DNA of 64,000 bases from Eledone cirrhosa (Eukaryota). Of this stretch, positions 12,330 to 59,246 are shown one piece after another; within the stretch, counting starts at the first letter, position 1, and each line of letters starts with the position of its first letter. Under the pieces are notes generated by a model. It was not told the DNA's origin, made no database searches, and was given only the letters and a program-made list of their open reading frames with translations. The stretch spans positions 93,930,001 to 93,994,000 of the forward strand of contig OZ024741.1 in the NCBI GenBank assembly GCA_964016885.1, read 5' to 3'. A program made the translations under genes and the position numbers.

Positions 12330-14105
12330 AATTACATTAACCGATGCGCATAGACACATATATTATTTGGTACTCTCCCCCATTCTCTTTAAGCGATAAA
12401 ACACCTTTAGCAAAGCTATTTTTTAAAGTACTAGACACATGTTTTCCTAAAGCCCACAGATACCACTCTATTTATAACAGACATACTATAAAACTATCCT
12501 GCTCTACTACTATGAACATAGCACAAACATAAATAGAATTAATAATAGAAATTTAAATTTAAACCATAACCAAAATTGCAATAATAATAATTCTAGGAAT
12601 ATCCAGTATGATAGTACCGTTCCGAGCAACAACAACTCCGTAAAATGTAACTGTAGAATCAAATCAAACTGCCCTTTATAAAATAATTGTTTAGTTAAAA
12701 ATGTAGTTTATAAATGCACAGTTAAAACTAGAGATGATATATTTAACTATGTCGGTGCCACCTCTACAGAATTTAAACAATGCTGGAATAACCAGAATCA
12801 TACTTTTAAAAGATCTGATAAAAATCTTCTACTTCACTTTCACATCTTATATGGAACTTAAAAAGCAAGAATATAGACTATTCAATATCTTGGAAAACGA
12901 TTTCAGAAGCACCTGCGTACCGAAATATGGCTTTATCAAAATTCTGTAAATTGTGTATTGAAGAATTTTTTTATATAATTAACTGTCAAAACTCTATTAA
13001 TCTCAGAACAGAATTATTTTCTTCTTGCAGACATCGCCAACATTCCACGTTCAGAACTATGTTTAACTTATAATATTCCTTAAACCTTCAAAATGATCTT
13101 ATCATTTAAAAATTTTTAATATTTTAATATCTTAATATTTCTAATTGATAATATCTCTAATATTTGTAATATTTTCACTTTTCAGCAAACACTCCTTTAA
13201 TATATATATATATTTATTTATATATATATATGTGTGTATGTATATAATTTTAATTTTTAATCTTTTAATTCTTACATTATCATTTTCTAACGAAACTCTC
13301 TAAATAAATTTTTTTAGACGTAGATTGATAATTATTAGAAACATTTATCCTCTTCACGACAGTTTCTTAGATAAACACATCACGTATCTCCTCTTTTGTT
13401 TGTTTTTATTCTAAAAATTTCACACATCTTTCGACTAAAATAATTAATTAATCTCACACTTCTTTAAATTCATCGATTAACAAACTAAATTGGAGTTATC
13501 TTTCCTTTCTCAATATTATAATACATCTTTAACGCTGAACAAAATATTCAAATCTATATATTTACATATAACTCATATTATAAACAACTAATAACAGTAA
13601 ATTATCAATATCTCTTTAACAATTATTAATATATATAGATATTTATACATATATCCTACAATATTTCAATAAGATAAATACTTACAAACATAATTCTCCA
13701 TATAAGTATAATATAGGCAAATATAAACATTTTTTTCTTCCCCCAAATTAACGTAAATATGTGGTCTTCTTTTCTTTTTCTTTCTTTTTCTCCTCTTTTC
13801 TTTCTCTCCTAATAATACAAACATATATCTAAATTTCCATAGCGTCTAAAATAACGGTTTTTTAATCATATACCCAACCTCATTTACATATTCATTAGCA
13901 TACTCATCCTAACAATTTTGAATTTTAAATCCACTATCCAAGGAATACTTCAACTGATAAGGTTGGCTATGTCAAAATTTATAAAACACAGTTTGTATTT
14001 TATCTGATGAAAGCGTACCAAACTTTTTGGTACCCTTGAAATATATATAATAGAATAAATATGGTTTTATAAATATATTTTCCATTTATTTAATATCATT
14101 GTGTA
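12330..14105 (+). mobile_element. Decayed 5'-truncated PLE, probably Hydra-clade-like (GIY-YIG region plus 3' UTR)
   Basis: IIWYSPPFS, KCNCRIKSNCP..CLVKNVVYKC..YVGAT, FCKLCIEE...ELFSSCRH across frameshifts; HHR near the 3' end. Clade assignment is from recalled motifs. Confidence 0.7.
13996..14057 (+). ncRNA. Type I hammerhead motif
   Basis: tattttat-CTGATGA-(gtaccaaa/tttggtac)-GAAAT-ATAT-ATA-atagaata. Confidence 0.75.
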
Positions 14106-15515: not shown

Positions 15516-21367
<5,852 letters not shown>

Positions 21368-21548: not shown

Positions 21549-21551
<3 letters not shown>

Positions 21552-21597
21552 TCCTGATGATTTCTAAAGAATGAAACAGTTCTAGTCCTGTAGAATC
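21549..21597 (+). ncRNA. Type I hammerhead motif
   Basis: gattc-CTGATGA-t-ttct/agaa-t-GAAACAG-ttctagtc-CTGTA-gaatc. Confidence 0.75.
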
Positions 21598-21690
21598 TAA
21601 TCTATATTAAAACTATATAAATATATATATATATGGTCGGTCTTTAGTTCATTATATATATATAAATGTATATAGTGAACTAAAGACCGA

Positions 21691-21773
<83 letters not shown>

Positions 21774-21784
21774 CACATATATAA

Positions 21785-21965
21785 TATAGAAATGGCTTCT
21801 ACAGGACTAGAACTGTTTCATTCGGGAGAAATCATCAGGAAGCTCTGAATGAAACAGTTCTAGTCCTGTAGAAGCCATTTCTATATTAAATATTTATACT
21901 CTGCTATGTATTGAGTGCCTTACTTACTGTAGTTAAGCCTGATTGAACCCTGGATAAAATTACAT
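21785..21965. mobile_element. Mini inverted HHR element (HHR on minus strand 21795-21843; truncated plus copy with tail)
   Basis: Minus strand gcttc-CTGATGA-tttctcccgaat-GAAACAG..CTGTA-gaagc; same family as 48695-49010 and 57405-57600. Confidence 0.75.
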
Positions 21966-22151
21966 ATATATAATCTATAAACTACGCAAGGTGAGGTAGA
22001 CACATAATAATTTAAAATATAAATCAAAATGATTTATCACACTATATATCACACACGTACAAACCCAAAGAAATTCGTTTCGCCATAAAATTAGTAACCG
22101 AAATGGAAATAGTTATGGCTCATCAGTGCGAGACACTCTAAAAATATTTAA

Positions 22152-25022: not shown

Positions 25023-25552
25023 CTATAAATATATATATATGTATAGTCTATCAAAGTTCTTTCATCACACACTTATGACATCATCAGTGGTACTATTATG
25101 CTTCCTCCCGTTGTATTGTAATATCTACGCCATTTTAATTTAATTTATTTATCTCTGTTTGCGCATGCGTTTGCGCGTGTGTTTTCTGTTTGGTGTGTGT
25201 GTTCGTGTCTGAGTCTATGTGTGTTTGAATTCTATCTTTGTTCACCAGTGTGTGTTTATGTGTAGTTGTTGTTATTGTTTATATTGTGTAGTTGTTTATA
25301 TTTACCTTAGGTCAGTAAGGTGTGTTTGTGAATGGTTGTTGTTGTTATTTAAGTCATTTCTATGTTTAGATAATATCTAAACATAGAAATGACTCAACAG
25401 GTAGACAAATCAGAGAAGCAACTAAAATAGAACTAAGAAAACCAAAGTTGAACAGAACAAATTTCGCGCCAGTTCGTGTTTGAGGGTTATTTATTTTCCA
25501 TTTCACAGTCACATAACTGGCCATATAATATAAATTTCTTTATTAAAATGAT

Positions 25553-40167: not shown

Positions 40168-40269
<102 letters not shown>

Positions 40270-40474
40270 TGGTAAACGGAATAGAAAATGCTGACAAATT
40301 GTTCACAGTTGAAAAATGGTTTAATTAGGAATAAAAGAGTATTAGTGATTGTATGGGTTAGTATTCAGTTGTGGTTTTAAGTTTTTAAGTTTTTACCGGT
40401 TGCGCATTTCTAAATGCTTTTCAAAAATAATTTTGAGATAGAGTGTCCGTGTTGTTTGCTCTGATCTGATTAGT

Positions 40475-42748
40475 TTGGGGAATTCTACCTGTTTTTATGT
40501 TAAAAATCTTACTAGTGCAGAACCAACACCCAACCTTATCTACTTACTCTCCAAAGGTCTTAAATTCACACCGACCCCACTACGTCCTAACTACTATGAA
40601 ATGAAGGAAGACATCACAGACTTCTGTAGAAAGTTACGACTTAGTGAACAACTATTCGACCAGTACAATGAGGATGAATCATTAGCCAGAAATAGAAGCA
40701 ATTACACCCCTTCAAAAGGTAGAAATAAAATCCTGGACGAATTCTGTGAACACATCACAAACTTCCCTTACCAACACTTGCACAGACAAAAACACAAGCC
40801 AAACTTCAACAAGAAAGAATGGGAAGAATTAAATAGATTAAAAACCGACAGAACCATTACAATTAAAGAGGCTGATAAAGGGAGTACAGTAGTCCTAATG
40901 GAGACAGAATTCTATATTAACTTAGCGCTCTCCACTTTGGAAAACGAAACATACTACGAAAAGGCTGAACACTACAATCAACAGAAAATTATGAGAAACC
41001 TAAAAACTCTAATCAACCAATACAAAGAAGGACTCACTAACAAGGAATTCTGCTTCATCACAGACTTCACAAGTAAATCCAGCCTTTTCTACGGTATCCC
41101 TAAAGTACATAAAAGCGAATCAATCAGTAAGGCATGCAAGGAAGCCACAGACATAGTCATCAATGTCCCCTCACCCAATGATCTCAAATTAAGACCTATA
41201 ATAGCAGGCCCCGCTTGCGAAACGCACCGTCTTAGCAACTTCATTGATACCCTTCTCAAACTCTTCCTCAAGCACATCAAAAGCTATATAAGGGACGACC
41301 TAGATATGCTCAATCACCTCCCTAATATGCCACTTTCTGAACAAACCCTACTAGTGACGTTCGATGTAGTCAACCTATACTCCAACATCCCCCACAACCT
41401 AGGAATAGAAGCTATCCAATTCTGGCTGGATAATTTCCACAATGAACTCCCACAACGCATCAAAAAAGAATTCGTGATAGAGGGACTCAAATTTATCTTG
41501 GAGAACAATTACTTCGTTTTCAACAACAAACCCTACAGGCAGAAATCTGGGACCGCTATGGGAACGAAAACAGCCCCTACTTATGCCAACCTAGTCATGG
41601 GATACCTGGAAATCACCCTCTACACTAAAGTCCTAAACAAATTTGGAAACACCCTCCACTTACACATAGAAAGGAACTGGAAGCGATATCTAGATGACTG
41701 CTTCATCCTTTGGCACAAAAACATCGAAAAACTTAAAGAATTTCACACCCTTATAAATGGGCTCAACACAAACATTAACTTCACGATGGAATACAGCCAT
41801 CAACAACTCCCCTTCCTCGACATCCTCATTAAGATCCATAACAAAAAAATAGAAACAGACATATACTACAAGCCCACAGACTCCAAGCAATATCTCCCCT
41901 TCAACTCTTGCCACCCTAGACACGTTAACATTAATATTCCCTACAACTTAGCCAAGAGAATCTGTACTATAGTCTGCAATAAAAACATCTGCTACTTACG
42001 GCTACAAGAACTAAAGGACACACTCATAGGCAGGGACTACACTGCATCACTAATTGACAATGGAATCCAACGTGCCCTAAAACTCAGTACCCAGGACCTT
42101 AGACACCCTAAAGTAAATCAACCAAAACTAAAAGCTCTTCCATACATCTCCACACACAACCCCCTCAACAATGAGGCCTTTGACACCATCCTCCAGAACA
42201 TCCCTGTATTGAAAAAGGACCATAGAATGAACCAAATTCTACGAACACACGATATCATAAAGAGCAAAAGACAATCCAAGTCAATGAAAAACATCTTAAC
42301 ACATGCCAAAGTACTGCCAACCACAACAACGAAACCCACAGTAAAAAAATGCGATAGACCCAACTGTGGCATTTGCATCAACCTAATAGAGGGTTCGGAA
42401 TTCTATTTCAAAGATGGACAACGTTTTATAGTAAAACACAATTTCACATGTGCATCGGAAAATCTAATATATGTATTAACTTGTTCAGGTTGTCGAGAAC
42501 AATACATAGGCCAGACCAAAAACAGCCTCCGCCAACGCATGACTGTCCATAGATCCCAAATTAAAATACGGGAATACAGGAAAATACCACTGAGTGAACA
42601 CATTGATACCTGTGCCGCCCAAAATCATCCCAACTTCAGAATCTTTCCCCTCTACAAATTTAAAGATAATGCCACCCACACCCAGCGCATCAGCAAGGAA
42701 TCTTACTTCATTAACAAATACGGACCCCGTCTAAACACTTCTCCCTAA
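40475..42748 (+). CDS. PLE reverse transcriptase plus C-terminal GIY-YIG endonuclease (uninterrupted; true N-terminus probably missing)
   Basis: LSKGLKFTP, IKEADKG, FYGIPKVHK, LRPII, FDVVNLYSNIP, QKSGTAMG, RYLDD, FLD; linker CDRPNCGIC; NLIYVLTCSGCREQYIGQT..R..H..H. The first ~11 codons come from the inverted repeat. Confidence 0.93.
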   Translation: MGNSTCFYVKNLTSAEPTPNLIYLLSKGLKFTPTPLRPNYYEMKEDITDFCRKLRLSEQLFDQYNEDESLARNRSNYTPSKGRNKILDEFCEHITNFPYQHLHRQKHKPNFNKKEWEELNRLKTDRTITIKEADKGSTVVLMETEFYINLALSTLENETYYEKAEHYNQQKIMRNLKTLINQYKEGLTNKEFCFITDFTSKSSLFYGIPKVHKSESISKACKEATDIVINVPSPNDLKLRPIIAGPACETHRLSNFIDTLLKLFLKHIKSYIRDDLDMLNHLPNMPLSEQTLLVTFDVVNLYSNIPHNLGIEAIQFWLDNFHNELPQRIKKEFVIEGLKFILENNYFVFNNKPYRQKSGTAMGTKTAPTYANLVMGYLEITLYTKVLNKFGNTLHLHIERNWKRYLDDCFILWHKNIEKLKEFHTLINGLNTNINFTMEYSHQQLPFLDILIKIHNKKIETDIYYKPTDSKQYLPFNSCHPRHVNINIPYNLAKRICTIVCNKNICYLRLQELKDTLIGRDYTASLIDNGIQRALKLSTQDLRHPKVNQPKLKALPYISTHNPLNNEAFDTILQNIPVLKKDHRMNQILRTHDIIKSKRQSKSMKNILTHAKVLPTTTTKPTVKKCDRPNCGICINLIEGSEFYFKDGQRFIVKHNFTCASENLIYVLTCSGCREQYIGQTKNSLRQRMTVHRSQIKIREYRKIPLSEHIDTCAAQNHPNFRIFPLYKFKDNATHTQRISKESYFINKYGPRLNTSP

Positions 42749-43235
42749 GACGAATCCACAACATACACATGTCAACATATATACCTACATCAGCACACAT
42801 CTCTACCCACATATAAACACAATGACACACGTAAACACACATGCTCTATGGTGCAATACAAAGAAATATGTGTGCATATATATGTATGTATATATGTATA
42901 TATATATATATATGTAGTGGATATATGTATGTGTGTATATATATATAGTGAATATCATTTCACACCTTTTATTGTTAAGATTTTTGATGTTCTATTAAGA
43001 GAACCGATTTTACTGAAAAAATCGAATAATGTACACCATTTTACCAGGGGGAAAAAAATACTGGTCCACCCACACACACACACACACACACATATACACA
43101 AACACATACACACGCGTACATCAACATACAAAGAGACTTATACACACACACACACACACACGCACTTCTCCGTATAAGACAAAAGCTGAAAAATATCTTT
43201 TGACCTTCGAATGACTCTGCTATACACACACACAC

Positions 43236-43275
<40 letters not shown>

Positions 43276-43346
43276 ATCTTAATAGCCATTTGACACACAT
43301 CGCTGCTGGCCATTGTCGCAGCATCGAACACCTTACTACTACTACT

Positions 43347-43401
<55 letters not shown>

Positions 43402-43737
43402 TACACATACACACACACACACATATTCGTTGTGAAAGAGTCATTTCTCAATCTTGGCGCAAAACCAATTTTTTATCCACATGACCTCTACCGACCAATC
43501 AAAATTGTTTTGACCAAGAATTTTTGCTGGAGCCACTTTTTTAACATAAAAACAGTCTTGGCGCAAAATCAACTTTTTACATTCACATGACCTCTTCCGA
43601 CCAATCAAAATTGTTTTGACCACAAGCATTTTTGCAACACAAAAATAACGCTGGAGCCACTTTTTTAACATAAAAACAGGTAGAATTCCCAAAACTAATC
43701 AGATCAGAGCAAACAGCACGGACACTCTATCTCAAAA

Positions 43738-43780
43738 TTATTTTTGAAAAGCATTTAGAAATGCGCAACCGGTAAAAACT
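43738..43780 (+). ncRNA. Degenerate hammerhead-like motif in Neptune-like 3' UTR
   Basis: ttt-TTGAAAA-gcattt/aaatgc-GCAAC-CG-GTA-aaa; conserved in all copies of this family. Confidence 0.4.
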
Positions 43781-44361
43781 TAAAAACTTAAAACCACAAC
43801 TGAATACTAACCCATACAATCACTAATACTCTTTTATTCCTAATTAAACCATTTTTCAACTGTGAACAATTTGTCAGCATTTTCTATTCCGTTTACCAAT
43901 ATATAATAACTTGTGTGTTACACCTCTATTCTTTTAACTATATATATATATATATATATATATACATACATACGAGTATGACCATTGGACGATATACCAT
44001 TATTAATAATTATTAATTAATTCTATCGTGCAATACCTGTGCATGAAGATATTTTTTAAAGTGAGGAAAGACTGTGCACTGAGCCAATCCCACTCTCTGA
44101 GCGACAGTAGCTATAACCCGAAAAGAAGAAAATTTCAACATCATCGGTAGCTACTGAGCCGCAGGTTTTATATCGGAGTTATTCTAGTTTCCTGAGTTGC
44201 CTTCTCCTAGAAGAATGCCCTGACAAAGGCTAGGGGTCCTTCACTCCCAGTGGTTTAACCGCGCGGTACATGTGTATATACATATTTAGACACTTTCGGA
44301 TGGCCGTGGACTCTTATGAGTTCTTCCGCCCATTTGCCAGGTTTACATACATACATCATAC

Positions 44362-46993: not shown

Positions 46994-47048
46994 ACTGCTA
47001 TATATATTTCGGTGATAGCCATCTTTGGCTGTGACCTCTTCAGGCAGT
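46994..47048 (-). ncRNA. Type I hammerhead ribozyme motif
   Basis: actgc-CTGAAGA-ggt..agcca/tggct..acc-GAAAT-ATAT-ATA-gcagt. Confidence 0.8.
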
Positions 47049-48387: not shown

Positions 48388-48430
48388 GTCACTGAAGAGG
48401 TCACAGAATGTGTGACGAAAGAACTTTGAC
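48388..48430 (+). ncRNA. Type I hammerhead motif in PLE 3'-end fragment (48075-48585)
   Basis: gtca-CTGAAGA-g-gtcaca/tgtgac-GAAAG-AA-CTT-tgac; second copy 50237-50279; diverged relatives near 17080-17120 (+), 15843-15883 (-) and 25045-25092 (-). Confidence 0.7.
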
Positions 48431-48576: not shown

Positions 48577-49010
<434 letters not shown>

Positions 49011-49011
49011 C

Positions 49012-49043
<32 letters not shown>

Positions 49044-49997: not shown

Positions 49998-50478
49998 ATA
50001 TTGTTATGCTTTGGGAGGGTCATGTTGCTAATAAGAAACACACGCACCAGTTGCTTTCACTTCAATTTATTATAAATTAAATTTATAAATTTCCGGTTGG
50101 CTGGTTGGTTCCACAACCAGACGATTGTTCATATATTGTCAAAGTTCTTTCGTCCTACACCATCTTGTTTTAGAAAAAACAAGATGGCGTAGGACAGAAC
50201 AAAGGAGAGACACAAAAACAAAGAAAATAATCCCCAGTCACTGAAGAGGTCACAGAATATGTGACGAAAGAACTTTGACAATATATGAACAATCGTCTGG
50301 TTGTGGAACCAACCAGCCAACCGGAAATTTATAAATTCCTAAATTTATAAATTTAATTTATAATAAATTGAAGTGAAAGCAACTGGTGCGTGTGTTTCTT
50401 ATTGGCAACATGACCCTCCCAAAGCATAACAATATCGGTTTCAACACACGTTTTCAGATAAAGAATCTTGCTAAACAA
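49998..50478. mobile_element. Inverted PLE 3'-end pair containing HHR 50237-50279
   Basis: 49998-50150 is inverted relative to ~50263-50434; tail on the right only. Confidence 0.8.
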
Positions 50479-50489
50479 ATTCAGAAACG

Positions 50490-50816
50490 ATATATATAAG
50501 GTGTCCTACACGAGTGAAAGTATAAAGAAAAAGAGATGAAATCGAAAATGCAACTGGAGTCTTGTTTTTTTTTTAAATATATATATTTATTTGGTTCCTT
50601 TACCGGTTTCGCAGTTCTTCTGCTTTTCAAAAGGTGAGTTGAGATGGAGGGTCTGTGGTTTTTCTCACATCTGATGTGAGAAAAACCACAGACCCTCCAT
50701 CTCAACTCACCTTTTGAAAAGCAGAAGAACTGCGAAACCGGTAAAGGAACCAAATAAATATATATATTTAAAAAAAAAACAAGACTCCAGTTGCATTTTC
50801 GATTTCATCTCTTTTT

Positions 50817-50822
<6 letters not shown>
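50490..50822. mobile_element. Palindromic mini-element with two U3:A8 hammerheads (50597-50634 -, 50710-50747 +)
   Basis: cctt-TTGAAAA-gcag/ctgc-GAAAC-CG-GTA-aagg; ~150-bp arms. Confidence 0.75.
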
Positions 50823-50860
<38 letters not shown>

Positions 50861-50890: not shown

Positions 50891-50927
50891 AACTAAACTG
50901 ATGCGTGCATATATGTATGTGTACCTG

Positions 50928-50969
<42 letters not shown>

Positions 50970-51405
50970 TGCTACTGTACGTCTGTATACATATATGTAT
51001 TTACGTATACATACATACTTACATTTAAGTAAGTGCCATACTAAGAGTGAGAAATGAAATTTCGTTTTCATTTTTTTCAACTTATCGTTTTCGGTATGCC
51101 TGACCGATTTAACTCACTCAATATGCAAATTAGGCTGCTCAGCCGTTAATTTTCATAAGGAAAGTATATACTTTCGAACGTTCAACTATCTGGCAGATGG
51201 GTATACGGTGCTGATGATAGCTAACAAGCTTGAAACTAGTACATCGTTCCTGTGTCAGTGTTGAACAAAAAGGTGACGTGGTTGCCTTAACACCGTATGG
51301 CATAAATTCAGGCTGTTCAGTTTGTTTACAAACGAACAAAGCGGCGTTATAATAAGCGTCCGCTAAACTGATGCGTGCATATATGTATGTGTACCTGTAT
51401 GTATA

Positions 51406-51471
<66 letters not shown>

Positions 51472-53485
51472 TATAGACATAGAATATTCGAAAATATTCT
51501 GTATGTTTATAATAAACATTTTGAAGACCTAATCGCTATAGAATAGAATACGTCACGTATTACAATTAGATTCTCGATAAAAGCAAGGGAAGTAATCTAC
51601 GCGTTTCATTCTTGTTAGAAATCATCAGGACTACATATCCAGTGCTTTTATCGAGAATGACACAGCTAGAGACTTATAGAATACTTAGCTGTGTACAGGA
51701 ACTGGTTTGAAAGAGCGGTTGCCGGTCCGGCAGAAATTAGAAATTGGAATAAATGCTCTGAAATAGCGATATATATGTGAATATAGACATAGAATATTCG
51801 AAAATATTCTGTATGTTTATAATAAACATTTTGAAGACCTAATCGCTATAGAATAGAATACGTCACGTATTACAATTAGATTCTCGATAAAAGCAAGGGA
51901 AGTAATCTACGCGTTTCATTCTTGTTAGAAATCATCAGGACTACATATCCAGTGCTTTTATCGAGAATGACACAGCTAGAGACTTATAGAATACTTAGCT
52001 GTGTACAGGAACTGGTTTGAAAGAGCGGTTGCCGGTCCGGCAGAAATTAGAAATTGGAATAAATGCTCTGAAATAGCGATATATATGTGAATATAGACAT
52101 AGAATATTCGAAAATATTCTGTATGTTTATAATAAACATTTTGAAGACCTAATCGCTATAGAATAGAATACGTCACGTATTACAATTAGATTCTCGATAA
52201 AAGCAAGGGAAGTAATCTACGCGTTTCATTCTTGTTAGAAATCATCAGGACTACATATCCAGTGCTTTTATCGAGAATGACACAGCTAGAGACTTATAGA
52301 ATACTTAGCTGTGTACAGGAACTGGTTTGAAAGAGCGGTTGCCGGTCCGGCAGAAATTAGAAATTGGAATAAATGCTCTGAAATAGCGATATATATGTGA
52401 ATATAGACATAGAATATTCGAAAATATTCTGTATGTTTATAATAAACATTTTGAAGACCTAATCGCTATAGAATAGAATACGTCACGTATTACAATTAGA
52501 TTCTCGATAAAAGCAAGGGAAGTAATCTACGCGTTTCATTCTTGTTAGAAATCATCAGGACTACATATCCAGTGCTTTTATCGAGAATGACACAGCTAGA
52601 GACTTATAGAATACTTAGCTGTGTACAGGAACTGGTTTGAAAGAGCGGTTGCCGGTCCGGCGAATATTCTATGTCTATATTCACATATATATCGCTATTT
52701 CAGAGCATTTATTCCAATTTCTAATTTCTGCCGGACCGGCAACCGCTCTTTCAAACCAGTTCCTGTACACAGCTAAGTATTCTATAAGTCTCTAGCTGTG
52801 TCATTCTCGATAAAAGCACTGGATATGTAGTCCTGATGATTTCTAACAAGAATGAAACGCGTAGATTACTTCCCTTGCTTTTATCGAGAATCTAATTGTA
52901 ATACGTGACGTATTCTATTCTATAGCGATTAGGTCTTCAAAATGTTTATTATAAACATACAGAATATTTTCGAATATTCTATGTCTATATTCACATATAT
53001 ATCGCTATTTCAGAGCATTTATTCCAATATATATATATATATATGCATGCTACTGTACGTCTGTATACATATATGTATTTACGTATACATACATACTTAC
53101 ATTTAAGTAAGTGCCATACTAAGAGTGAGAAATGAAATTTCGTTTTCATTTTTTTCAACTTATCGTTTTCGGTATGTCTGACCGATTTAACTCACTCAAT
53201 ATGCAAATTAGGCTGCTCAGCCGTTAATTTTCATAAGGAAAGTATATACTTTCGAACGTTCAACTATCTGGCAGATGGGTATACGGTGCTGATGATAGCT
53301 AACAAGCTTGAAACTAGTACATCGTTCCTGTGTCAGTGTTGAACAAAAAGGTGACGTGGTTGCCTTAACACCGTATGGCATAAATTCAGGCTGTTCAGTT
53401 TGTTTACAAACGAACAAAGCGGCGTTATAATAAGCGTCCGCTAAACTGATGCGTGCATATATGTATGTGTACCTGTATGTATATA

Positions 53486-53525
<40 letters not shown>

Positions 53526-53963
53526 TGCTACTGTACGTCTGTATACATATATGTATTTACGTATACATACATACTTACATTTAAGTAAGTGCCATACTAA
53601 GAGTGAGAAATGAAATTTCGTTTTCATTTTTTTCAACTTATCGTTTTCGGTATGTCTGACCGATTTAACTCACTCAATATGCAAATTAGGCTGCTCAGCC
53701 GTTAATTTTCATAAGGAAAGTATATACTTTCGAACGTTCAACTATCTGGCAGATGGGTATACGGTGCTGATGATAGCTAACAAGCTTGAAACTAGTACAT
53801 CGTTCCTGTGTCAGTGTTGAACAAAAAGGTGACGTGGTTTGCCTTAACACCGTATGGCATAAATTCAGGCTGTTCAGTTTGTTTACAAACGAACAAAGCG
53901 GCGTTATAATAGAGCGTCCGCTAAACTGATGCGTGCATATATGTATGTGTACCTGTATGTATA

Positions 53964-54011
<48 letters not shown>

Positions 54012-54125
54012 TGTTACTGTACGTCTGTATACATATATGTATTTACGTATACATACATACTTACATTTAAGTAAGTGCACTACTAAGAGTGAGAAATAAA
54101 ATTTCGTTTTCATTTTTTCAACTTA
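50891..54125 (+). mobile_element. ~480-bp HHR tandem array (retrozyme-like, about 3.4 units), interrupted by the 310-bp array
   Basis: Unit marker gcatg(c/t)tactgtacg at 50967, 53045, 53523 and 54009; HHR acggtg-CTGATGA-t-agct-aaca-agct-t-GAAAC-TA-GTA-catcgt at 51205-51247, 53283-53325 and 53761-53803. Confidence 0.85.
51469..53028 (-). mobile_element. 310-bp HHR tandem array (retrozyme-like): ~3.8 units plus ~1.2 inverted units
   Basis: atatagacat at 51471, 51781, 52091 and 52401; inversion at ~52661; HHR gtagtc-CTGATGA-t-ttct-aaca-agaa-t-GAAAC-GC-GTA-gattac at 51592-51634, 51902-51944, 52212-52254, 52522-52564 (-) and 52827-52869 (+). Confidence 0.9.
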
Positions 54126-54194
54126 TATATATATATATATATATATAACCACTCAGCCACACGCCTTCATATATATAACCACTCACCCACACGC

Positions 54195-57357
<3,163 letters not shown>

Positions 57358-57404
57358 GGTTTGTTGGTTCACCACTGTATATATATATATATATATATAT
57401 ATAA

Positions 57405-57596
57405 ATGTATCCCGGGTTCAATCGGGGGAAACCACAGTCGGGAGTAAGTAAGGTACTCAATACATAGCAGAGTATACATATTTAATATAGAAATGGCTTC
57501 TACAAGACTAGAACTATTTCATTCGATGGAAATCATCAGAAAACCTCCTATGATTTCCTTCGAAGGAAACAGTTCTAGTCCTGTCCTGTAGAAGCC

Positions 57597-57600
<4 letters not shown>
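57405..57600. mobile_element. Decayed copy of the inverted HHR mini-element family
   Basis: aatggcttctacaagactagaactatttcattcgatggaaatcatcag plus inverted gaaacagttctagtcctg..tagaagccattt; tail on the left. Confidence 0.7.
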
Positions 57601-57640
<40 letters not shown>

Positions 57641-57645
57641 TTATG

Positions 57646-57759
<114 letters not shown>

Positions 57760-59032: not shown

Positions 59033-59246
59033 CATATATGTAAAAGGTAAACAGAAATAACAACACAATCGGTGCAGTATATGGAAGGAATAGGTTAACG
59101 CTTGAAATAGCAGGAAGAGGGCCTTAACATTTCGGACGCTAGTCCTTCATCAGATGAAACAATGAGAAATTAGAAAGATTGAAAGGACGGGCGGGTGTAA
59201 GCATGTTTGTGGGAGTGAGTGTGTGTGTATATGTATGTATGTATGC

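Follow-up and report, generated by a model that had tools for sequence, protein, structure and literature searches.

Paired start sites and clonal head-to-head arms in arrays of two hammerhead retrozyme families: evidence for probable twin-primed rolling-circle copying

Two families of short hammerhead-bearing repeats, A and B, form head-to-head, internally clonal arrays with outer ends at two fixed unit positions. It is probable that an endonuclease-reverse transcriptase of a Penelope-like element (PLE) makes these arrays by copying a circular RNA in rolling-circle fashion from two primers. The window, i.e. the whole stretch of DNA analysed, is 64 kb of a 3.0-Gb animal assembly and contains much (TA)n and many PLE frames. 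The original prediction for this DNA centred on a locus at which an A array is nested in B. The informative features that it overlooked are the inversion and the paired start sites, not the nesting.

Anatomy of the arrays

Unit A is a 310-bp tandem repeat (51459-52661, 3.9 copies, 99%, found with TRF), and unit B is a 478-bp tandem repeat (53027-54126 plus 50893-51450). The hammerhead core is the sole sequence that they have in common. The longest ATG frames on the ribozyme strand encode 30 aa (A) and 54 aa (B). On the opposite strand they encode 17 aa (A) and 136 aa (B), the latter passing through the (TA)n of B. Neither unit contains an RT plus GIY-YIG frame, and thus neither is an autonomous PLE. 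Two non-coding tandems with one type I hammerhead per unit had been predicted, and both tandems, with one such motif per unit, were confirmed. The 310-bp array splits the (TA)n of one ~480-bp B unit, again as predicted, and the host, expected to resume at ~53029, is picked up at ~53029-53040. The description of A as one tandem array was only partly correct. The 310-bp tandem is real, but 3.9 minus-strand units are joined head-to-head to 1.2 plus-strand units. Unit positions are numbered here from the predicted cut, and the outer ends S1 and S2 lie at ~131 and 165 in A and at ~261-264 and 322 in B. The features of the locus and two coding PLEs of the window are as follows.

40263..43940, plus strand: coding PLE with a 768-aa RT plus GIY-YIG frame at 40442-42748
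50893..51467, plus strand: left part of host retrozyme B; begins at unit position 122, includes one ribozyme and reaches the split internal (TA)n
51205..51247, plus strand: B type I hammerhead motif, predicted cut after 51241
51468..52660, minus strand: left arm of retrozyme A, 3.9 units, outer end at S1 (unit position ~131 past the predicted cut)
51592..51634, 51902-51944, 52212-52254 and 52522-52564, minus strand: four A hammerhead motifs on the left arm
52655..52668, no strand: head-to-head inversion joint of A, left arm to unit position 177, right arm from unit position 108, 1-nt overlap
52661..53028, plus strand: inverted right arm of retrozyme A, 1.2 units, outer end at S2 (unit position 165)
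52827..52869, plus strand: A hammerhead motif on the inverted arm, predicted cut after 52863
52995..53028, plus strand: PLE-type tail of A, 34 nt (S1 to S2), at this end only
53029..54126, plus strand: 2.3 units of host B with the remainder of the split (TA)n, up to B S2 (unit position 322)
53283..53325, plus strand: B hammerhead motif, predicted cut after 53319
53761-53803, plus strand: third copy of the B hammerhead motif
54069..54126, plus strand: tail of B, ~58 nt, from S1 near unit position 261-264 to S2 at 322
55124..57238, minus strand: second coding PLE frame, 704 aa, RT plus GIY-YIG

The left part of host B has no inverted arm at this locus.

Both units carry a predicted self-cutting hammerhead. 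In each unit, stem I has 6 pairs and the core reads CUGAUGA...GAAA. A U-U pair closes a 4-pair stem II with an AACA loop, and a palindromic 2-pair stem III stands ahead of GUA. The canonical animal type I layout, as set out in the available part of PMC4209133, has 6, 4 and 1-2 pairs with a palindromic loop, and the stem lengths of the predicted A and B motifs fit it. The catalytic core is almost invariant across 604 A and 123 B segments, and the common variants are located at tolerant ribozyme positions. The circular fold of A has an energy of -67.8 kcal/mol (shuffles -47.8 +/- 4.9), and that of B, a value inflated by its (TA)n, is -154 kcal/mol (shuffles -103 +/- 6.5).

The Rfam scores count against the proposed mechanism, being far below threshold. 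Against a gathering score of 52, Hammerhead_HH9 matched with 19.2 bits (E 0.054) and 18.6 bits (E 0.087), and these matches arose only in a 661-base search. In the whole-window scan, no hammerhead was present among the 150 of 179 matches listed; the scan gave chiefly matches to microRNAs, which lay in palindromes or simple repeats and stayed under their gathering scores. The isolated motifs also fold no better than shuffles (z -1.3 and -0.5). A third point against comes by analogy from Xenopus, where just one of nine retrozymes self-cleaved in vitro and eight did not, according to the available part of bioRxiv 10.64898/2026.07.22.740005.

We sampled loci mostly from the first part of contig C1. 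Simple head-to-head pairs make up 57/64 A segments and 31/55 B segments, and no simple tail-to-tail array occurs among these 64 and 55. One S1 and one S2 outer end are found in 57/57 two-ended inverted A arrays (55 scored automatically and 2 by eye; one array is a local duplicate; a further array, L011, interrupted by an N gap, was left out). Most A arrays were chosen by their S2 end, so that for these the real test is the absence of S2/S2 pairs. The arrays chosen by the ribozyme word alone were S1 plus S2 in 8/8 cases. For B, where all arrays were chosen by the ribozyme word regardless of ends, 21/21 scorable arrays among the 31 inverted ones pair S1 with S2; 10 with a broken end were left out. 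Both arms are longer than one unit in 41/54 A arrays. Arms reach 27 units, and the lengths of the two arms of an A array are uncorrelated (rho 0.08).

The S1-S2 stretch, present at one end of the array, corresponds to the PLE 'tail'. It is 34 nt in A and about 58 nt in B, the latter longer than the optional 30-40 bp tail described in the available parts of PMC3846280 and PMC8557442. Both families are inserted in (TA)n, in which a target-site duplication is unreadable. The exception is an A array at C1:35890086, in plain AT-rich DNA. The coding PLE at 40263..43940 is alike, with an inverted 5' arm ending at S1 and a 3' end ~38 nt longer, both in (TA)n. By this anatomy, A and B are tied to PLE machinery. 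The suggestion that two families use the local (TA)n-targeting PLE machinery is supported as regards non-autonomy, insertion into (TA)n and the tail. In the loci searched, no PLE that shares sequence with them was found. A and B have no match in three local PLE families, and the frame at 55124..57238 has no sequence likeness to either. No coding PLE with A or B sequence came up when tblastn and low-stringency blastn were run over the fetched loci, 30 loci of an older A-like family and the flank to the left of L147. It had been named as a refuting outcome that the units could prove to be mere terminal repeats of coding PLEs. A is more than such a repeat, since the 57 two-ended arrays contain only A units between their outer ends, besides short junction inserts and one 272-nt insert, and no PLE frame. 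The 272-nt insert (L077:2598-2869) is an unrelated sequence at the inversion joint, with no second copy among the fetched loci.

One arm only is present in 22/55 B segments, including the host B of the window, and some B arms are joined to other families; both observations count against the mechanism. At L053 (C1:14405357), L141:3506 and L054:1279, B arms stand head-to-head with arms of other families, and the outer ends are in (TA)n. These are possible two-template insertions, and one molecule is thus not always the sole template.

Clonality, joints and the nature of the template

The route that we consider probable has six steps. The arrays would be transcribed, for which there is only a hint (see below). 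By analogy with published retrozymes, the hammerhead would cut the transcript to monomers and a host ligase would close them. A PLE protein would then cut both strands of the observed (TA)n target. On the ribozyme-sense RNA, synthesis from one of the resulting 3' ends would begin at S1 and from the other at S2; the paired ends are observed, and reading them as start sites draws on in vitro work on another PLE. Each cDNA would circle the template from <1 to >25 times, as the observed arm lengths and clonality suggest. Finally, the two cDNAs would join by short complementarity or small templated inserts, such as are observed at the joints.

The two arms of an array are alike. At four marker sites they agree in 51/51 A arrays, with 24% expected if they were independent. 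Among the A variants, 68 are fixed in both arms, 18 are partial and 120 are confined to a single unit (19 low-coverage variants were left out). Among the B variants, 127 are fixed in both arms, 1 is arm-specific and 8 are partial (188 plus 33 were left out as uninformative). Substitutions that are fixed but private to one array number 11 in A and 17 in B. Because such private changes are present in all units of both arms, a monomer stage is required.

The fixed changes are biased. On the ribozyme strand, A>G accounts for 18/56 array-fixed changes and for 19/203 single-unit changes (P 7e-5), and for 10/28 private fixed changes (P 6e-4). Among the array-fixed changes, T>C is not significant. When the analysis was repeated with a rotated reference, one further fixed A>G and a lineage with a one-base insertion were added. 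A276G turns up repeatedly, on four haplotype backgrounds. The simplest reading is that one edited base in one RNA molecule was read in each round of copying. Part of the A>G excess could come from selection for G-U pairing, though without a matching rise in C>T.

A hint of transcription comes from run X6, whose kind is unrecorded and which is from another sample than run X2. Relative to the window, A>G is seen at 22 places in X6 and at 4 in X2, and T>C at 14 and 5, respectively, while the other change classes are nearly equal (21 and 19). All 16 listed X6 rows within A are A>G or T>C. The change at A276 makes up 43% of summed depth in X6 and 1% in X2, and a change at the cut-site A makes up 43% and about 0. 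The excess resembles edited double-stranded RNA, which inverted arrays would be expected to yield, but may instead reflect alleles; contig depth is a poor measure, and contigs reveal neither RNA ends nor circles. In runs X4 and X5, from two other organism labels and studies, A was seen as one cyclic 340-base contig each at low depth. This may be contamination, diet or a shared element.

The strongest competitor retains the twin priming by a PLE enzyme but takes as template, in place of a circle, a homogeneous source array transcribed into one long linear RNA that stays uncut. It accounts for the paired ends, the intact cut sites and the concordance of the arms, and possible sources exist as homogeneous one-direction arrays of >25 units. 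In vitro work on PAc, a Poseidon-type PLE of the green anole, also speaks for it and, by analogy, against a need for the ribozyme: cleavage was dispensable and uncut RNA was the main substrate, in experiments with linear templates only (PMC11167929). Nevertheless, we consider this reading unlikely. Lacking a monomer stage, it cannot fix a new one-unit change in both arms, as the private substitutions of both families demand. The A>G bias fits one edited base read repeatedly, whereas editing of a multimer would give patchy units. A unit-order pattern common to both arms of an A array was looked for and not seen.

Copying of a cut linear monomer, with the enzyme jumping precisely from the 5' end to the 3' end in each round, would make arrays just as clonal as a circle does and would fix A>G changes in the same way. 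The joints at the cut site make it improbable, clearly more so than the uncut transcript. Inner arm ends show no enrichment at the cut site (3/110). From unit to unit, the cut-site dinucleotide is retained. The unit joints at this site are exact in 547/614 cases; the rest differ in stem I, 1-3 nt past the site, by variants that are mostly fixed within an array. Arms run scar-free through the cut site, as on a closed circle. A ligation scar was considered and rejected, because the additional nucleotide falls within stem I, 2-3 nt past the cut, and is for the most part the mark of a single sublineage.

The inversion joints bear on a further scenario, in which short insertions were later expanded and homogenised as a satellite by unequal crossing-over, the inversion arising by self-priming on an antisense template (the PMC3846280 model). 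Symmetric A joints (within 10 nt) number 5/54, with 3.7 expected, and the joints are thus asymmetric; 2/57 unanchorable joints and 1 duplicate were left out. An overlap of at least 2 nt is found at 21/34 clean joints (18.5% expected), and other A joints contain short templated inserts. These features argue for the annealing of two cDNAs and not for hairpin self-priming. The ~1,300 dispersed A arrays are 96-100% alike with both arms multimeric, the fixed changes have a sense-strand A>G bias, and the outer ends are strictly S1 plus S2, none of which fits later expansion. A satellite origin is thus very unlikely, even though it is the model preferred in the available part of bioRxiv 10.64898/2026.07.22.740005. 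Some later change did occur. The longest A arrays contain scattered shared variants, a 3.2-kb repeat at L069-L070 reads as a local duplication, and in L109 only some units have the A276G change: the four outermost scorable units of one arm lack it, while the remaining scorable units of either arm all have it, as though copying had moved to a different template. Later expansion or template change therefore also acts.

Relation to known systems

A and B join the known animal non-LTR retrozymes, and what is added here is genomic evidence for a mechanism so far only proposed. In the available parts of PMC7229834 and bioRxiv 10.64898/2026.07.22.740005, these retrozymes are likewise short non-coding tandem units with one type I hammerhead each, in thousands of copies, and their host genomes contain PLEs too. 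Axolotl HHR_Amex2 shares with A and B the U-U pair at the base of stem II. With its 478 nt, unit B exceeds the 170-400 nt given in PMC7229834 and is within the 51-972 bp of the bioRxiv study. Tandem cDNA made from a circle by a PLE enzyme is put forward as a hypothesis in PMC7229834 and also in PMC4209133, and the bioRxiv study argues the kinship with PLEs from distribution and terminal-repeat trees. Unlike our description of A and B, the available text of PMC7229834 and of the bioRxiv study does not mention head-to-head arms, paired start sites, (TA)n targeting or array clonality.

The endonuclease-bearing PLEs described in the available parts of PMC3846280 and PMC8557442 resemble A and B in having an inverted 5'-truncated copy, head-to-head, with a tail at one end. 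The clades Neptune, Hydra and Naiad share the (TA)n preference. Chlamys PLE derivatives such as MRC1 are non-autonomous and head-to-tail. A and B differ from the coding PLEs in that they encode no protein and both arms are many units long. Their arrays point to two primers on a sense template, in contrast to the self-priming on an antisense template proposed in PMC3846280. In vitro, PAc cuts AT-rich DNA on both strands and extends both (PMC11167929). Two neighbouring internal positions downstream of the hammerhead serve as its start sites and define the tail, and the protein is predicted to be a dimer; a start-site difference between the strands was not seen. A strict pairing of one site per end is not reported for PAc; this rule and the multi-round copying are read here from the genome.

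In the twin priming of LINE-1, two target 3' ends likewise prime on a single RNA, and joining of the cDNAs through microhomology gives a head-to-head inversion. The first LINE-1 primer sits at the poly(A) end, the second at an internal site that varies, and no arm is known to be longer than one unit. A and B differ in that both start sites are fixed and the arms reach >25 units.

Our literature search, which covered the text of openly available papers, returned no report of a strict one-site-per-end pairing, of clonal multimeric arms or of edit-like fixed changes. How the tandem and inverted structures of PLEs form, and whether a retrozyme circle is the template of retrotransposition, are posed as open questions in the available parts of PMC8557442, PMC3846280 and PMC7229834. 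A young family with ~1,300 insertions and a 310-nt template offers clear genomic predictions and a minimal in vitro substrate. The predictions are that each insertion uses two fixed start sites once each and that a single molecule is copied over many rounds. Should this hold, it would be natural target-primed rolling-circle reverse transcription in an animal, in which RNA edits become heritable DNA. A bolder proposal, which we hold tentatively and rate at somewhat below even, is that each insertion is the fossil of one circular RNA, rolled by an asymmetric PLE dimer with an S1 and an S2 subunit. A-to-I edits would be written array-wide and feed the evolution of ribozyme elements, and the tandem and inverted structure of PLEs would be explained generally.

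Nesting and neighbouring families

The exact 40-base ribozyme word has 4,470 copies (A) and 10,122 copies (B) genome-wide, and reversed control words have 0, so that the matches are beyond chance. By exact sequence patterns, 1,310 S2 and 1,225 S1 ends of A adjoin TA. The mapping of copies and flanks that had been proposed as a check thus gave thousands of dispersed copies of both families, with A ends in (TA)n. Junctions between an A end and a B tract gave 5 plus 3 matches (two tract sides) at 7 loci. B tracts number 7,837 by exact pattern, and (TA)10 runs bounded by C or G number ~1.72 million.

The strong form of the nesting idea, that A targets B specifically as a parasite of a parasite, is rejected as highly improbable. 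Like for like, 8/1,310 A ends are nested in a B tract, with 6.0 expected (P=0.25), both counts being lower bounds. Other insertions are also found in B tracts (3/107), and >96% of sampled A ends sit in other (TA)n. At L098 the pattern overlooked a nested insertion, and among the first 55 S2 ends listed, 2 (3.6%) are nested. A few-fold preference for B is therefore possible, though B variants outside the pattern would raise the expected number as well. With a (TA)n of its own, B is one target among many, and the rate at which A enters it is close to background. The nesting, which our search of the literature (same scope) found undescribed, is real but ordinary. It is a by-product of target choice and is itself of little consequence.

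An older A-like family (~330 bp, 73-83% to A, 2,758 first-look candidates) has its own S1 and S2 ends. It was sampled at L143:1828-2145, L147:814-1145 and L175-L204, and its inverted copies have the same two ends. At L147, one A-like copy abuts a PLE fragment head-to-head. No kinship to a coding PLE was found among 30 loci of this family. That the inversions are assembly or library artefacts (fold-back reads or amplification chimeras) is hardly credible: they are known here from the assembly and not from raw long reads, and the window has several near-perfect palindromes, but fold-backs would be symmetric, with neither fixed ends nor polarity, whereas the A and B arrays are asymmetric, head-to-head and S1 plus S2, the same ends recur in this older third family, and short-read contigs contain a loose (TA)n end at S1 (the run may be the assembly's own sample).

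The near-perfect palindrome at 15587-17336 contains a PLE 3' fragment with minimal hammerheads at 15854-15881 (minus) and 17083-17110 (plus). It obeys the two-site rule, as one arm carries a ~41-nt tail, and a longer frame of the same PLE family is present in L170 and L088. A perfect palindrome at 50490-50823 with 151-nt arms belongs to another (TA)n-inserting non-coding family; its left arm has an apparent tail, and its end resembles the S2 region of B. A further short family occurs as tandem and inverted copies within (TA)n at 21551-21979, 48581-49040 and 57378-57722. Its hammerhead is much like that of A, with the same U-U base of stem II and a longer stem III region. More hammerhead-like cores of other families lie at 1668-2865, 14004-14041, 25060-25087, 47007-47043, 48392-48420, 50241-50269 and 59130-59153. 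At least six families in the window have such cores.

At L069-L070 (C1:289416600-289426500), B trimers occur four times with a period of ~3.2 kb, two with a palindromic insert and two with an identical A array. This is a local duplication or an assembly duplicate. We did not adopt the view of the 3.2-kb B-plus-A composite as a larger retrotransposed circle, as other inserts in adjacent blocks fit local duplication. Within the window, 18558-20446 and 40442-42748 belong to the same PLE family; they are 96% identical, in opposite orientation and 20 kb apart.
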